A stretch of DNA of 64,000 nucleotides from a virus: the UHGV virus genome UHGV-1428848; one strand, written 5' to 3'. The translations under genes and the position numbers were made by a program. The notes beneath the pieces were generated by a model. That model saw only the letters and a program-made list of their open reading frames with translations. It was not told where the DNA came from and ran no database searches. Below are positions 5,905 through 45,937 of this stretch, piece by piece (position 1 is the first letter of the stretch; every line of letters begins with the position of its first letter).

Positions 5905-5918
5905 AGGGCCGAAGCCCT
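5905..5918 (-). terminator. GC-rich hairpin with U-rich tail
   Basis: AGGGC-CGAA-GCCCT stem-loop, T-rich 3' on minus strand, directly after the 64-aa ORF. Confidence 0.45.
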
Positions 5919-6116: not shown

Positions 6117-6144
6117 AATTTTCCTTAGTTAAGGGCCGAAGCCC

Positions 6145-7083
6145 TTATTTAAATTGTTCAGTAACGTCTTCAACTACTTCGTATTGACAGGTACGCATTT
6201 TAGCATCGTTGTAATCAATCGGAATTGATACTACATCACGCGGATGTACTTTAACTTTTACAACTCGGCTGGTTGAACTGCCAAAGTGACGAATATAAGA
6301 TTTAGAACACACATGCAGACCACGAGAACAAGTTTGTGTATCATCGTCATTCACACGAGTACGTGGCATTTTAACTACTTTACCAGGACTGTTATCAAAA
6401 GTATTTGAATGACAGTCAAAGTAATTGCTGCGAACTACTTTCCAAGCATAGAAGTAACCATCTTCTGTAATTTCAATATCATTTGCTACCAAGAAATCAA
6501 AAAGTCGAGATACCGCTTTCTGGCTTGGGTTTTCCAGCAGATTTTCCAAGAACGGAAAATAAAATTCAAAGTTTTCGCCTTTTTCCATCGAGTCAAGAAT
6601 ACGATCAACCAAACCAGATCGCAATTCAATATTTTGATAGAATAAGCTTCCACCTTCAATTCGAACATCGCCGGAAATATATTTTTCAACAGCGCGACGA
6701 ACATTAATTTTTTGTGCCGCTTCTTCTAACTTATCTGCTACGAGCAGATTAAGAATTTCCTGGAAGTTTGAATGAGTATTAGGAGTTGCGTTATAAGTTA
6801 CACCGTCAACAGTAATTGAAATGAATTTTTTAGATGCATTCCAAATAATGTCAGATTTAGCAACTGGAGCAATAACTTCATCGCTATTAACTTTAACTGT
6901 AATATCACCGCTAATAGTAACTTTAGGGCGTTTAGCTTCTTCAGCATTTTTCAAAACACGACGGATTGTGTCAACCGATACATCCTTCCAATAAGCTAAT
7001 TCCTGCTGAGTGTAATTACCGCTTGAATACAGTTTAACAATTTCAGCTTGTTCGTTTTTGGTCAGGCATTTAATATTGTACAT
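6145..7083 (-). CDS. rIIB: rIIB protein
   Basis: 312 aa, same as T4 rIIB; directly downstream of rIIA. Confidence 0.85.
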   Translation of the reverse strand: MYNIKCLTKNEQAEIVKLYSSGNYTQQELAYWKDVSVDTIRRVLKNAEEAKRPKVTISGDITVKVNSDEVIAPVAKSDIIWNASKKFISITVDGVTYNATPNTHSNFQEILNLLVADKLEEAAQKINVRRAVEKYISGDVRIEGGSLFYQNIELRSGLVDRILDSMEKGENFEFYFPFLENLLENPSQKAVSRLFDFLVANDIEITEDGYFYAWKVVRSNYFDCHSNTFDNSPGKVVKMPRTRVNDDDTQTCSRGLHVCSKSYIRHFGSSTSRVVKVKVHPRDVVSIPIDYNDAKMRTCQYEVVEDVTEQFK

Positions 7084-30847: not shown

Positions 30848-31000
30848 ACCTCAATTGATACATTCATATTTAACTTGTAACAGTAATAAACCCCAACCTA
30901 AAATAATAGTTGGAATCATAAGAGGAACCGTTACACTATAGTATATACTTATTATAACCATCAAGATTAAAAGCAACACTGTTATAATTTTGCTTTTCAT
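30848..31000 (-). CDS. small membrane peptide (50 aa)
   Basis: Hand-translated MKSKIITVLLLILMVIISIYYSVTVPLMIPTIILGWGLLLLQVKYECIN; ATGA overlap with imm. Confidence 0.35.
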
Positions 31001-31248
31001 TCCTTCTCTCTGATGATAATTACCTGATTTGGTTGTGCAGACTTTTTAGTTTCACCCGCAATTGACCAAATAAATGTAATAAACCAACCAATAATTGACC
31101 AGTTAAACAGTAAAGATGTGAAAAAGATTCCTACTGTCGATTTTGACCCACGCATCAAGGCGATAAACCATGGAAGCATGTATATAATAATAGCCAACAC
31201 ACCTGAAACTAAAACCATAAAAATTGAACCTGCTACTAAAGTTTCCAT
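30997..31248 (-). CDS. imm: Imm, superinfection immunity membrane protein
   Basis: 83 aa as in T4 Imm; two TM helices; position between 42 and 43. Confidence 0.65.
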   Translation of the reverse strand: METLVAGSIFMVLVSGVLAIIIYMLPWFIALMRGSKSTVGIFFTSLLFNWSIIGWFITFIWSIAGETKKSAQPNQVIIIREKE

Positions 31249-31255
31249 ATTTTCC

Positions 31256-31648
31256 TCACTTAGTCAAATTTTTTACGCATGAATTATAAGAATTCACTAC
31301 ATACTCCATCGGAGCATTTTTACCAGTACGCCATTGGTAATTATTGGCCCAATTAGCCCAAAGCTCGGCGCAGTAGTTTTCAATTTTTTCTTCGCGTGTA
31401 ATTACATCCGAATTACGATATGCTTGAGCAGATTCATCTGGACGAATAGCTTCGTCAAAATTCGCCTGCATTTGTTCGACTGTTTGCTTTGGAGCTTCTT
31501 TATAACACTTAACATTAGGATTATAAAATTTGCTTGAACAGTTTACAATTTTTCCTGCATCAGACTGATTTACTACCGGTCCTTGAGCTACACAACCAGT
31601 AAGACCTAATGCAATAACTAAAATAGCGATTTTCATTTCATTCTCCAA
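31256..31648 (-). CDS. putative lipoprotein (130 aa)
   Basis: Signal peptide with lipobox LTGC. Confidence 0.5.
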   Translation of the reverse strand: MENEMKIAILVIALGLTGCVAQGPVVNQSDAGKIVNCSSKFYNPNVKCYKEAPKQTVEQMQANFDEAIRPDESAQAYRNSDVITREEKIENYCAELWANWANNYQWRTGKNAPMEYVVNSYNSCVKNLTK

Positions 31649-31820: not shown

Positions 31821-34517
31821 TCAGCCAAACAGGAAGTCTAACGAAGCTTTTTCTTCATAGTCCATACCAGCCGATTCACACATGCCTGCAAGCGGTTTAA
31901 CAAACGATTTTTGGAACAAAGTCGAGTAGTCAATCCAAGACAATACGTCAGAACGAATTTCTTTTGGAAGTTCTGTACCCGACGGCCAAGCAATGCATTT
32001 GTCACCAAATGGATTTCCCTCACGTAATGGAAGAACCATTACCTTATTTCCATCCAAAATTGGAGCTACACCTAGACCACTAACAGCTCGACGATAAGTT
32101 AGCACACCACGAATATGGAACGGGCATTTAAATCCTGGCCAACCTTTATCATCATATTTCGCTATATCGTTCGCAGTTTTTACTTCAGCAATAACTTTAT
32201 AGTCAAGTTGACGATATTCTTTCTCAAAGTTCTTATAATATTCTTGAACAGACTCTTCGCCTTCTTGAAGAATACGACGGATACTTTCTTCAAGAGCTTC
32301 TTGGACCGCTTTAGGCGTTGAACTCTGCTGAGTTTCCATACCCATGATTTTTAGATGCGGTTCAGCAAATCGCTTATCTTCCATATCATATACGTTCAGA
32401 GCATAGCGCTTTTTCGCTTTCCAAAATCCACCAACGCCCTTTGAACCAAGTGGAGGGCAAGAAATAGCTTCACGGTCCATATGCATCAGATGCTCGCGGT
32501 TATTCATATAATCACATAACTCACGATATGCAACATCAATCATAGGTTCCATCTTTTTCTTACCGAACTGATTCATGAATTCAACTAAATCGTTCTGCTC
32601 TTTGAATCGGTCAAGACCAACTTTTTCAATAACTTTATCTACACAAACATATACCGAATCAGTATCACCTGCTGCAATGAAATCTTCATCATTAGTTCCG
32701 CATACTTTATTCAGATATTCATTAATTTTACGAGCAATCCACTGAATACCAACTTGGCCGAAAATTGTGATAGCAGTAGCATTTCGCAAATCATAGTAAC
32801 GGAAATGAATATTACCAAGAGCACCATAAAGACTGTTAATAAGAATTTTACGGTTCAGCTGATTTGTGTTAGCAAGTGTAGCTGCTTTTTCACACTCTTC
32901 GATCAAATTATTAAGAACAGATTCGGTGTAATTCGATAATTCATTTAAGAAATCATCACTGAACTTAACATATCGTTCAACTTCAGGTTTAGTTGAACAG
33001 GACCCTGCGCCTTTCATAATAATCTTTTTAATAGCTTCGGCATTCATTTCTTCAGCGAACATTTTCTTTTTCCAATCTTTACGCTGGAAAAATACTTTAG
33101 CGATTTCCTTTGGAATGATACCTTCTTGATGCTTATCATACATCCATCCATTCGGAGAACAAGAATATTCATCACTTGGTTTAGGAGCTGTTCCTGCGAT
33201 ATATTCATGAATTGGATGAACTTTAAACTGACCACGAATAGTCTCAGGACTAATGTTAACCTGACGAATAATGCTCGGATACAGAGACGTCAAGTCAAAA
33301 CTCATAATATATCGACGAGCAATTGGTTTAGGTTCAAATACAAATGCACCCGGAAAACTTTGTTTAACGTGCGAACCTTGTTGAGGAATAACCTTATGTT
33401 CACCTTTCAATGAGTTAAAAATAATAGCATCCCAAGTTTTAATAGGACTCATTACACCAGAAAAAGGCATTTTAGCATAATAAGACATACTTAAAACTAG
33501 ATCGATAAACCCGCGAATTTTATCAATTGCTTGAACTGATTCTACGTCAATGATGTTATAACTAATGTATCGTTGATGATTAGTCTCACGAAGTTTATTA
33601 ATAGGACCGTCGTATGGTAATTTACCTTTTTTGGTTTCATGCTGAGCAACTGATTCCAAAGAGAATGACGGCAAATTAGTAAAAGCGAATTTCTTGTACA
33701 AATCTAAATAATCAAGAATAGATACGCCATCAATAGAATAAATTTCTTTGCTACCGTACATATTTTGGATAAGTTTAGATTTTACTCGACCGATTGGAGA
33801 GAAACGTTTCATACTGCGTTCACCGAGAACCATTTTAACGCGATTCATGATATACGGAACGTCAAATCCCTCAATATTCCAACCAGTAAAAATAGCAGGT
33901 CGTTTCTGTTCCCAAAGATTGATATATTCCATGAGCATATCGCGCTCATTATCGAATGGCATATAAATTACTCGGTCAAGAATTTCTTGAGGAACTTCAT
34001 CACCACCTTCACAGTCAAGCTTAGCAGCTAACTTTGCATCCCATTTTGATACTGAACCGTACATTGAATTCAAAAGGTCGAAAACATAAAAACGATCATC
34101 AATTGAATCGTAATGAGTGATAGCATCAATTTCATATTCAGCTTTCATTGGGTCAGGAAATTTATCACCAGTAACCTCAATGTCACAGTTAGCTACACGA
34201 ACAAATTTTCGGTCATAAACAATTTCTGAACCATATGTATCACTGATATAAGCGAGTTTAAAATCGTTCATACCGAGAGCTTCGAGACCGATGTCTTCCA
34301 TTCGTTTCATCCAATCTCGAGCATCTTTCATTGATGGAAATTTTTGAGGAGCGCAGTTTTTACCATAGATGTCTTTGTACTTTGACTCTTCCTTACAATG
34401 CCTAAACATAGTTGGAAGATATTCTACTTCACGAGTACGTTCCTTTCCGTTTTCATCAATATAACGTTCAACAATGTTATTTCCGACTGTTTCAATAGAG
34501 ATATAAAATTCTTTCAT
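31821..34517 (-). CDS. 43: DNA polymerase (family B) with 3'-5' exonuclease
   Basis: 898 aa as in T4 gp43; Exo motifs (FDIE), polymerase motifs (DTDS). Confidence 0.95.
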   Translation of the reverse strand: MKEFYISIETVGNNIVERYIDENGKERTREVEYLPTMFRHCKEESKYKDIYGKNCAPQKFPSMKDARDWMKRMEDIGLEALGMNDFKLAYISDTYGSEIVYDRKFVRVANCDIEVTGDKFPDPMKAEYEIDAITHYDSIDDRFYVFDLLNSMYGSVSKWDAKLAAKLDCEGGDEVPQEILDRVIYMPFDNERDMLMEYINLWEQKRPAIFTGWNIEGFDVPYIMNRVKMVLGERSMKRFSPIGRVKSKLIQNMYGSKEIYSIDGVSILDYLDLYKKFAFTNLPSFSLESVAQHETKKGKLPYDGPINKLRETNHQRYISYNIIDVESVQAIDKIRGFIDLVLSMSYYAKMPFSGVMSPIKTWDAIIFNSLKGEHKVIPQQGSHVKQSFPGAFVFEPKPIARRYIMSFDLTSLYPSIIRQVNISPETIRGQFKVHPIHEYIAGTAPKPSDEYSCSPNGWMYDKHQEGIIPKEIAKVFFQRKDWKKKMFAEEMNAEAIKKIIMKGAGSCSTKPEVERYVKFSDDFLNELSNYTESVLNNLIEECEKAATLANTNQLNRKILINSLYGALGNIHFRYYDLRNATAITIFGQVGIQWIARKINEYLNKVCGTNDEDFIAAGDTDSVYVCVDKVIEKVGLDRFKEQNDLVEFMNQFGKKKMEPMIDVAYRELCDYMNNREHLMHMDREAISCPPLGSKGVGGFWKAKKRYALNVYDMEDKRFAEPHLKIMGMETQQSSTPKAVQEALEESIRRILQEGEESVQEYYKNFEKEYRQLDYKVIAEVKTANDIAKYDDKGWPGFKCPFHIRGVLTYRRAVSGLGVAPILDGNKVMVLPLREGNPFGDKCIAWPSGTELPKEIRSDVLSWIDYSTLFQKSFVKPLAGMCESAGMDYEEKASLDFLFG

Positions 34518-34518
34518 A

Positions 34519-34560
34519 GATATTCCTTAGTTTATAGCCCGAGTTATTAGGCTCTTGATA
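34519..34560 (-). promoter_or_regulatory. gene 43 translational operator hairpin overlapping RBS
   Basis: Minus strand GAGCCUAAUAACUCGGGCUAUAAACUAAGGAAUAUCUAUG, which I recall as the gp43 autoregulatory operator. Confidence 0.6.
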
Positions 34561-34575
34561 TATTATACTCCAAAT

Positions 34576-34595
34576 AAGGGGGCCGAAGCCCCTTT
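34576..34595 (-). terminator. GC hairpin with U-tract
   Basis: GGGGC-TTCG-GCCCC then CTTATTT on minus strand. Confidence 0.45.
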
Positions 34596-34598
34596 GCT

Positions 34599-34835
34599 TT
34601 AAATTTCTATTGTACGACGCGATATAACGGACTTGCCATCTGTATTTGTGGTTTTGATAATCGCATGAAATGCGCGTTGGCGTGGGTAAACTAATCGTTG
34701 GAATTCTTTTTGGAATTCTATTTGTTTATCTTCCGGGAGGTCAAAAACCAGTTGGGTAGAAGACAGACCATATGTTTGTTTTAGATTTTCGAATATTAGA
34801 AAAGCTTCGGTAAACTGAATCTCTGATTGTGTCAT
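34599..34835 (-). CDS. hypothetical protein (78 aa) between regA and gene 43
   Basis: ATG at 34835 (AAGGTAAA SD) just after regA stop; the 95-aa track ORF would overlap regA by 41 nt. Confidence 0.4.
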   Translation of the reverse strand: MTQSEIQFTEAFLIFENLKQTYGLSSTQLVFDLPEDKQIEFQKEFQRLVYPRQRAFHAIIKTTNTDGKSVISRRTIEI

Positions 34836-34845
34836 ATAATTTACC

Positions 34846-35214
34846 TTAATTACCAATCGTATATTTAGGAACGAGTTTCCATTCATGTTTTTGTTTAAAA
34901 GAAATAACTCGGAAGTTATTAGTTAAATCTTTCATAAAAGTTCTTTGACCAGGAACGATTTCAATCAATCCCCAATCTTCTAACAACCATGCAATCGAAT
35001 CACGACGAACTTCATCTTCTTCTGTCATTTCAACTTGACGACCATCCATACGAAGCATTTCTTTAAAATGAACGATATAGTATAGTCCTTTTTTCTGAAG
35101 AATATGACAGGACTGATACAGAACTTTATCTTTATTATTAGCAATTCCCATACGAGTCAAAGTTTCTTTTACTTTCAGAAAATCTTCAGGTTTTTTAAGA
35201 GTAATTTCAATCAT
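34846..35214 (-). CDS. regA: RegA translational repressor
   Basis: 122 aa as in T4 RegA; downstream of gene 62. Confidence 0.8.
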   Translation of the reverse strand: MIEITLKKPEDFLKVKETLTRMGIANNKDKVLYQSCHILQKKGLYYIVHFKEMLRMDGRQVEMTEEDEVRRDSIAWLLEDWGLIEIVPGQRTFMKDLTNNFRVISFKQKHEWKLVPKYTIGN

Positions 35215-36774: not shown

Positions 36775-36788
36775 AGGGCCGAAGCCCT
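36775..36788 (-). terminator. GC tetraloop hairpin after gene 45
   Basis: AGGGC-TTCG-GCCCT immediately after gene 45 stop. Confidence 0.4.
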
Positions 36789-36791
36789 CTA

Positions 36792-37478
36792 TTAAAAATC
36801 GTGGGTAGAATCAGCTTCAAGAGCTACTACATAATTTGCGTGTTCACCTTCAAATTTAGCAGCACCTTGTTTACCTTTTGCCCAGAGTAGAAGTTTATAA
36901 TTTCCTGGTTGCATTTTCATATTTGCCATATTGATAATGAAATTAAATGTATTTTCACCATCATAATCACCAAGAGTCAAAGAATATTTAACACGGGTCA
37001 GAGCAGAATCTTCTACTTTATTAAAACCGTTAATTACGATTTTACCTTCTTTTACCGTGATAGCAATTGTATCAATTTGCAGACCACGAGATACACGCAA
37101 CAGCTGTTGAAGGTCTTCAGCTTTAATTTCAGTAACAACAGATGCTACCGGGAATGGAATTGGTTTATTAGGAGCAACTACTGTACTCGGATCGGCTGCT
37201 GGCCAAAAAATTGTTGAACGAGCATCAGCAATTTTAATATTTCCATCTTCTGACTGGGAAATTTCTGCATCATCATTAACTAAAGACAGAATACCGAGAA
37301 AACCGTTCAAATCGTAAATTGCTACATCAAAATCAATAACGTCAGAAATATTTGCTTCCGCATAAGTTGTACCATTAACTGCGCGAGTCATAATAAATTG
37401 ACCGGATTTAAGCATAATACCAGAGTTAATAGTAGCGAAATTTTTAAGCAGAGCAGTAGTATCTTTAGACAGTTTCAT
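36792..37478 (-). CDS. 45: sliding clamp
   Basis: 228 aa as in T4 gp45; position upstream of 44/62. Confidence 0.85.
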   Translation of the reverse strand: MKLSKDTTALLKNFATINSGIMLKSGQFIMTRAVNGTTYAEANISDVIDFDVAIYDLNGFLGILSLVNDDAEISQSEDGNIKIADARSTIFWPAADPSTVVAPNKPIPFPVASVVTEIKAEDLQQLLRVSRGLQIDTIAITVKEGKIVINGFNKVEDSALTRVKYSLTLGDYDGENTFNFIINMANMKMQPGNYKLLLWAKGKQGAAKFEGEHANYVVALEADSTHDF

Positions 37479-42061: not shown

Positions 42062-42099
42062 ATATCAAACTCCGTATAAAGCTAAAGGGCCGAAGCCCT
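42062..42099 (-). promoter_or_regulatory. hairpin plus candidate MotA-dependent middle promoter
   Basis: AGGGC-TTCG-GCCCT after a-gt stop, then TTTAGCTTTA - 12 nt - TATAAT on minus strand; same module as upstream of gene 39. Confidence 0.35.
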
Positions 42100-43302: not shown

Positions 43303-43545
43303 TTAATATCCTCATTGTTTTGGTTTATTTTACCAAAAATTTATAAAGCAATATAGGAGCCGAAGCTCCTATCCGCATAATACACCGTATAGAGGCTCAT
43401 TAGAGCTTCTAAATTTTATACGCTTATATGTTATAGTTCCTTCTGCTTTAGCTTTATCATGAGACTCTTTAAAGCGTCTCATCATTTCCTCTTTAGAGGA
43501 ACGAATTTTATTATAATCTATTTCAGAAGTCTGGGTGTTCATCTT

Positions 43546-45685: not shown

Positions 45686-45736
45686 ACATTATCCTCAATT
45701 GCATTAAAATTTTATTATCCAAAAGGGCCGAAGCCC

Positions 45737-45937
45737 TTAGCTAAACTTTTTGGCACCCTTCCAGCCTTCGTACATCATTGCGGCTGATATTAATATTGCT
45801 CCTGAGCAACTTGAATATTTGTGATTCCAAAACCAGTTTAGAAAAACTTCATCATCAATACCTTGGGCTATCATATTTTCAAAGAACTGACGACGAGATT
45901 CGGCAATTCGTTGTGATAATTTAGATTCAGGATTCAT
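45737..45937 (-). CDS. hypothetical protein (66 aa)
   Basis: ORF track; GC hairpin (45722..45737) upstream. Confidence 0.4.
   Translation of the reverse strand: MNPESKLSQRIAESRRQFFENMIAQGIDDEVFLNWFWNHKYSSCSGAILISAAMMYEGWKGAKKFS

Follow-up and report, generated by a model that had tools for sequence, protein, structure and literature searches.

The surroundings of gene 43, the DNA polymerase gene of T4-type phages, have been described from several sides. The operator of gene 43 to which its product gp43 binds is well studied in T4 (PMC3014915), and in T4 the region between map units 35,662 and 27,197, with genes 45, 44/62 and 43 among its contents, depends strongly on MotA (PMC6024815). According to one proposal (Arbiol et al. 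2010, PMC2839356), promoter-early stem-loop (PeSL) cassettes drive the shuffling of ORFans as modules in T4-type phages, and PeSL-like sequences have been reported at the plastic g43 locus, including that of JS98 (PMC2839356). Here we consider the interval between regA and gene 43 in a 64,000-nucleotide (nt) stretch of the virus genome UHGV-1428848 (the window), where a small open reading frame (ORF) of 78 amino acids (aa) lies on the minus strand, as do all of the features described below. The family of this ORF (PF25760, PHROG 3826) is already known, with no function assigned to it, and the interval very probably holds gene 43.1, a real but dispensable accessory gene of the Tevenvirinae whose place between regA and gene 43 is conserved.

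The regA-43 interval and the gene 43.1 family

The 78-aa product matches the Pfam family PF25760, "Phage RB18 ORF43.1 protein", over positions 3-69 of the 69 in the profile, with an expectation value (E) of 1.1e-31 and a score of 108.9 bits (cut-off 27). The same profile is matched by all 20 of the family members that were aligned. The product also matches PHROG 3826 (8e-34), which is listed as of unknown function, so a homology search with this protein leads to a family that is already catalogued. The first-pass annotation of the window had called the ORF unannotated, which does not hold: Pfam has a family named for it, and NCBI, UniRef, JGI and ENA already contain a protein with 100% identity (21 contigs). 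RB51 and RB14 carry the annotation RB32ORF047c hypothetical protein, "similar to RB18 43.1", and the sister allele in ime09 is annotated as "gp43.1: uncharacterized protein ORF43.1". The proper label for the ORF is therefore gene 43.1 (PF25760), rather than a new insertion, and beyond this correct annotation its significance is small.

The ORF is a real gene under purifying selection. A tblastn search with gp43.1 finds homologs in 313 phage records, and across genera the members keep an open frame and can be aligned at 40-55% identity. Alignment of 20 diverse family members gives 11 invariant and 10 nearly invariant positions. The ratio of non-synonymous to synonymous substitution rates (dN/dS), calculated by the Nei-Gojobori method and counted only for pairs with unsaturated dS, is well under 1 in each case: 0.07 for RZ and VR7, 0.17 for JS98 and AnYang, 0.21 for RZ and JS98, and 0.25 for VR7 and AnYang. 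The view that the ORF is genuinely protein-coding is thus upheld.

The same order of genes is found well beyond the window. The order regA-ORF-43, with the genes on one strand, is annotated in the Gaprivervirus phages RZ and VR7, the Dhakavirus phages JS98 and AnYang, Enterobacter phage MY742, and the Tequatrovirus phages RB51, RB14 and JB75. In Moonvirus KM16, the record of which is unannotated, our own ORF calls place the ORF after regA. The ATG of the ORF lies 1 nt past the regA stop codon (TAAtATG or TGAtATG) in RZ, VR7, JS98, AnYang, MY742 and further Tequatrovirus phages, and the two genes overlap in KM16.

A 501-nt query over the interval matched 517 phage records, 69 of which have the entire stretch at 97% identity or more, with a "hypothetical protein" annotated there. 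Approximately 503 of these 517 flank-matching records are of Tequatrovirus type; the other 14 match just a short stretch of the hairpin region at 80-90% identity, and the two that were inspected are Gaprivervirus RZ and phage TH44. Within Tequatrovirus the slot is found in three states, namely the allele of the window (69 records), the RB14/RB32-type allele (178 records) and an empty site as in T4 (about 256 records). In T4 the regA stop runs directly into GCAAGGGGCTTCGGCCCC, followed by TATAAT and the operator with no ORF between them, and T2 is likewise empty, which agrees with the first-pass annotation, where no T4 gene was known in this interval. RB69 (Mosigvirus) is also empty, with an 81-nt spacer between regA and gene 43 (L014, 8351-8433), so absence extends beyond the T4/T2 lineage.

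The flanks of the two alleles and of the empty state are approximately 98-99% identical in DNA within Tequatrovirus. Between RB51 and RB14 the RegA protein is identical, with a dS of 0, and the ORF product is 43% identical, with a dS of about 1.5. Shortened copies of the RB14-type allele occur in JB75 (55 aa; L013, 1168-1335) and Citrobacter phage PhiZZ23 (40 aa; P0024), which suggests ongoing decay in some Tequatrovirus lineages. The locus is therefore variable among T-even phages, as had been supposed, with carriers, a second allele and empty sites. Comparison across the T-even genomes bears out the absence of the ORF from T4, but it also reveals the same regA-ORF-43 order in several genera. 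The regA-43 slot is a three-state locus within a conserved replication module, and offers a clean natural experiment on the exchange and loss of an accessory cassette.

The phage in the window is an ordinary Tequatrovirus, with around 97.7% identity over 22 kb to several sequenced phages, and its minus strand carries the T4-type replication cluster 45-44-62-regA-43. The 78-aa ORF between regA and gene 43, a Shine-Dalgarno (SD) sequence ahead of it, and the hairpin and operator hairpin that follow it had all been noted in the first-pass annotation, and all are present. The features of the locus are as follows.

37478..36792, minus strand: gene 45 (from the ORF list)
35214..34846, minus strand: regA, the directly upstream cistron, encoding the translational repressor RegA of 122 aa (from the ORF list)
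34848..34836, minus strand: regA stop codon TAA and 10-nt spacer, GGTAAATTAT (from the sequence)
34847..34844, minus strand: AAGG, putative SD of the small ORF, 8 nt before its ATG
34835..34599, minus strand: gene 43.1 (RB18 ORF43.1 / RB32ORF047c family), 78 aa and stop, with the ATG at 34835 and the stop codon at 34601..34599
34592..34579, minus strand: hairpin GGGGC-TTCG-GCCCC with a C(UUCG)G tetraloop (from a terminator scan and folding)
34567..34562, minus strand: TATAAT, -10-like hexamer of a gene 43-proximal promoter (from the cross-genus alignment)
34553..34536, minus strand: gp43 translational operator hairpin AGCCU/AAUAACUC/GGGCU, with a 5-base-pair (bp) stem and an 8-nt loop (from folding)
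34528..34525, minus strand: AAGG, SD of gene 43 (from the sequence)
34517..31821, minus strand: gene 43, DNA polymerase of 898 aa, with the ATG at 34517 (from the ORF list)

The RegA protein of the window is identical to that of RB51, RB14 and T4, where the gene is annotated as regA, and the T4, RB51 and RB14 records give DNA polymerase for the region homologous to gene 43. The putative SD of gene 43.1, AAGG, joins the AA that ends the regA stop codon to the GG that follows. An alternative in-frame ATG at 34886 would give a protein of 95 aa and a 41-nt overlap with regA. This longer form was ruled out and the 78-aa start is preferred, because the 17-codon extension is out-of-frame sequence from the end of regA and has no SD, and because RZ and VR7 are without the upstream ATG.

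Other features of the region can be noted briefly. A sigma-70-like sequence, TTGACC-18 nt-TAGAAT (10/12), lies inside the ORF at 34715-34744 on the minus strand and is directed at gene 43; the number of sigma-70-like sites in the region is not above shuffle expectation. On the 3' side of gene 43, at 30851-31648 on the minus strand, there are three small ORFs (49, 83 and 130 aa) with strongly hydrophobic or lipoprotein-like N-termini, e.g. MKIAILVIALGLTGC, and this is presumably the imm region of T-even phages. An Rfam search of the interval at E up to 1 gave two chance-level matches only, an Rfam search of the entire window at the gathering score gave no family, and a tRNA search found none.

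Signals before gene 43 and proposed expression

From the hairpin to the start of gene 43, the window is identical to T4 except for one added C at 34578. The operator sequence is identical to that of T4 and folds as predicted, and changes to its stem in other genera stay paired. From this identity, gp43 would be expected to bind and repress at the operator in the window. Since the hairpin, TATAAT and operator are the same with or without the ORF, regulation of gene 43 is probably unaffected by gene 43.1 and can be assumed to be T4-like. The first-pass annotation placed the ORF in a regulatory hotspot, but the ORF leaves these signals undisturbed: in T4 an equivalent hairpin, TATAAT and operator follow regA immediately.

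The extra C at 34578 makes the 3' arm of the hairpin GCCCCC, compared with RB51, RB14 and T4, and the 501-nt query aligns to 500 nt in the nearest database records. It may be a true homopolymer variant or a sequencing error. The T4 hairpin has an A-U extension of its stem, whereas the copy in the window is without it, as the extra C removes it.

The stem of this first hairpin is paired in five genera despite changes in its sequence (GGGGC/GCCCC, GGGAC/GTCCC, GGAGCC/GGCTCC and GGGCC/GGCCC), and in every state of the locus the cistron just ahead of it has its stop codon 4-6 nt before the hairpin. The tetraloop hairpin is followed by CUUAUUU. Its stem is strong, its tail, CUUAUUUGG, is a weak and interrupted U-run, and a simple terminator scan flags the site. 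The records of G50 and JB75 annotate the hairpin as a terminator. It is terminator-like, and the regA/43.1 transcription unit would have its 3' end here. TATAAT is kept in nine of the ten aligned sequences, with GATAAA in Moonvirus KM16, and Yersinia phage fPS-2 annotates the stretch of hairpin and TATAAT as a "predicted middle promoter". A sigma-70 consensus scan of the minus strand at TATAAT found no -35 partner.

The coding strand of the window carries seven hairpins of the C(UUCG)G class, of the type (A/G)GGC-TTCG-GCC(C/T), compared with 0 expected in shuffles. One of the seven sits in the intergenic spacer between genes 45 and 44.

5905-5918, 6132-6145, 34579-34592, 36775-36788, 42086-42099, 43356-43369 and 45724-45737, minus strand: C(UUCG)G hairpins

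Taken together with the layout of the cluster, these signals point to a model for expression of the gene. Gene 43.1 would be the last cistron of MotA-dependent prereplicative transcripts that cover 45-44-62-regA and stop at the C(UUCG)G hairpin. Its translation would depend on termination-reinitiation coupling to regA (TAAtATG) in most lineages, and in the window's allele on the AAGG created at the regA stop. The start region of 43.1 is A+U-rich (AAAUUAUAUG; as RNA, GGUAAAUUAUAUGAC), and its stretch AAAUUAUAUGAC resembles the known RegA targets of gene 44, AAAUUAUGAUU, and rIIB, AAAAUUAUGUAC (PMC3014915). Because of this resemblance, repression of 43.1 by RegA is plausible, and synthesis of gp43.1 might then both track RegA and be limited by it.

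Function and origin of gene 43.1

AlphaFold2, run on the family alignment, predicts a confident structure for the window's allele, with a mean predicted local distance difference test score (pLDDT) of 92.3 and a predicted template modelling score of 0.80. The predicted elements are a helix at residues 3-21, a helix at 35-49, and a beta-hairpin of strands 55-63 and 69-77 (H-H-E-E). The same order is predicted for the RB14-type allele (pLDDT 88.9). The protein is hydrophilic, with an isoelectric point (pI) of 4.6-6.6 in six sequences, and has no conserved Cys or His; its conserved polar surface residues are K19, D32, E35, Q38, Q42, R73 and E77.

Searches beyond the family gave little. No enzymatic, catalytic or nucleic-acid-binding signature was found in gp43.1, a PDB profile search returned chance matches only, and NCBIfam gave one chance match. 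Across 20 members, Pfam at E up to 10 gave nothing recurrent except PF25760. A Foldseek search of the PDB with the gp43.1 model gave nothing below 1e-3. In BFVD, the structure matches at E of 0.001 or less are uncharacterised proteins of T4-type phages, which are members of the family, and include an Edwardsiella phage protein that is 26% identical; weaker matches were uninformative. The PDB and BFVD searches thus gave no structural neighbours outside the family itself. A HMMER search over 1.84 billion representatives found approximately eight true family clusters, all of small proteins like those of T4-type phages. Two further matches in the search, P0026 (1157 aa, E 2e-10) and P0030 (2317 aa, E 4e-5), are long tandem-repeat proteins with several short matching stretches, and on reading were rejected as false positives inflated by the repeats. 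A helix-turn-helix was considered at the motif LKxxYGLSxTQ and also rejected, as the model has coil there and no helix-turn-helix family matches. A literature search by family and gene names gave nothing relevant on gene 43.1.

Taken as a whole, gp43.1 is most likely a small, non-enzymatic binding protein that is dispensable to the phage. Its partner is probably a variable factor of the host, or another phage factor, rather than RegA or gp43, since across the two alleles and the empty state the RegA protein is identical and the DNA of the start of gene 43 is approximately 98-99% identical.

A more specific form of this idea is possible, and we hold it tentatively: gp43.1 could be a host-directed accessory factor, such as a counter-defence protein or a host-takeover inhibitor, with its alleles swapped under selection driven by the host. 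The gene is dispensable, is present or absent and has two alleles within one genus, and has a dN two to five times that of regA. Its prereplicative expression class and orphan fold are also typical of accessory genes aimed at variable host factors. However, gp43.1 has no homology to known anti-defence proteins and none of the PADLOC models matched it, and genes of this kind are found clustered in hyperplastic regions (PMC2839356), a core replication operon being an atypical place for them.

The history of the slot bears on whether the ORF is a recent arrival. The block that varies extends precisely from the stop codon of regA to the foot of the hairpin stem. At its 5' end in the window, the 13 nt GGTAAATTATATG (34845-34833, into the ATG) match the usual junction of other alleles and genera, GGTAATTAATATG, at 11 of 13 positions. 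This looks like a degenerate duplicate of the junction between regA end and ORF start in the donor, i.e. a recombination footprint, and the AAGG SD of the window's allele would therefore be a product of the duplication. At the other end, the final 30 or so nt of the allele and the hairpin are 88-90% identical to Gaprivervirus, with much greater divergence over the remainder of the ORF. As RB51 and RB14 combine identical RegA proteins with such different ORFs, at least one allele must have been brought in by recombination, and this was probably the case for the allele in the window. At its empty site T4 reads AATTAAGCAAGGGGC, the same junction as at the 3' end of the RB14-type allele, AATTTAAGCAAGGGGC, and the site is best explained by a deletion with the short repeats TAATTAA and TAATTTAA as its endpoints. 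We therefore see the slot as old, and shaped by allele exchange and repeated loss rather than by a fresh insertion, with the direction of change inferred.

On the same evidence it is unlikely that a foreign ORF was recently inserted into the regA-43 interval in one lineage. The absence of the ORF from T4, T2 and RB69 would fit an insertion, as would the nearly identical flanks of alleles that are 43% identical, the degenerate duplicate of the regA-end junction, and the near-identity of the 3' end of the window's allele to the Gaprivervirus version. However, homologs fill the slot with the same tight regA junction in at least five genera or lineages, and the divergence of the ORF between Gaprivervirus and Dhakavirus roughly parallels that of regA. 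One of the two alleles is present in roughly half of the Tequatrovirus records, and what has been swapped is a version of an old gene, not a new gene. A homing endonuclease or other self-mobile element would be expected to carry a nuclease (GIY-YIG or HNH) or recombinase domain, and none was found in Pfam to E 10. The lineage-specific insertion suggested in the first-pass annotation thus survives only in part: the slot is filled across the Tevenvirinae, although the window's own allele was probably imported.

It is rather doubtful that gp43.1 acts either as a modulator within the core replication operon, on translational control by RegA or gp43, or as a factor in counter-defence or host takeover. 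If one of these were true, the two alleles at 43% identity and the empty state would make the slot an arms-race cassette in a part of T4-type genomes that is thought to be frozen.

It is also unlikely that gp43.1 regulates its neighbours, as an anti- or co-repressor acting with RegA, or as a modulator of gp43 autoregulation or of replisome assembly. The gene lies invariably between regA and 43 and is probably coupled to the regA stop, which would give co-expression with RegA at a fixed ratio, and its small product has polar surface residues that are conserved. Against this, RegA is 100% identical whether it is found with either allele or with no ORF, and the operator and the N-terminus of gp43 are essentially identical. 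A modulator specific to one partner is not expected to be only 43% identical, or absent, while that partner is unchanged. The pI, mildly acidic to near-neutral, also argues against RNA binding.

That the ORF is non-functional spacer DNA with an accidentally open frame is almost certainly wrong: T4 is without it and shows no obvious harm, shortened copies exist in JB75 and PhiZZ23, and the window's allele differs from RB51 by two non-synonymous and no synonymous changes (a tiny sample), but this reading is effectively refuted already by conservation of the frame and of 11 invariant residues across genera, by the low dN/dS, and by the confident and concordant structures predicted for both alleles.

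Several points weigh against the interpretation of the interval as a dispensable accessory gene in an old slot. The fixed position beside regA could reflect some functional tie to RegA, at odds with a variable external partner. The likeness of the start region to RegA targets is weak, as T4 start regions are generally A+U-rich. Translation of the ORF and its start codon are inferred from sequence. RB69 is empty as well, so ancestral presence followed by losses is favoured, though not proven, over repeated horizontal spread of the cassette. With these points taken into account, a real accessory gene 43.1 in a conserved slot is still the interpretation we hold to be very likely.

Comparison with described systems

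PeSL cassettes are among the described systems that the locus resembles. As in these cassettes, a GGGG...CCCC stem-loop lies beside a -10 element and flanks a small variable ORF, with the hairpin 11 nt upstream of TATAAT. The element is 88-90% identical over approximately 60 nt between genera, which is enough for a recombination site. However, the locus has a single element of this kind, 3' of the ORF. On the 5' side the ORF is bounded by the regA stop, with no second hairpin or promoter element, and the mechanism of a mini-circle formed by two PeSLs is thus inapplicable as described. The element also differs in that no sigma-70 -35 sequence was found, and one record annotates a middle promoter. 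The regA-43 element is not a full PeSL.

The hairpin itself compares well with another class. Tuerk et al. in 1988 reportedly described extra-stable C(UUCG)G tetraloop hairpins that are intercistronic in T4. The hairpin in the window has the same G+C stem closed by C(UUCG)G, and is likewise intercistronic. The gene 43 operator is also like its T4 counterpart, with the same 5-bp stem, an 8-nt loop, AAUAACUC, that contains UAAC, and an SD and AUG downstream. The sole difference lies upstream of the preceding C(UUCG)G hairpin, where the stop of the ORF replaces the regA stop.

The closest relatives of the gene are the members of PF25760, PHROG 3826 and RB32ORF047c, with which it shares its length class, its position between regA and gene 43, and a full-length match to the hidden Markov model. 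It differs from the RB14/RB32-type members and those of other genera in its first helix, which is approximately six residues longer, and in its 10-nt spacer and putative SD of its own, where these others have the TAAtATG coupling junction.

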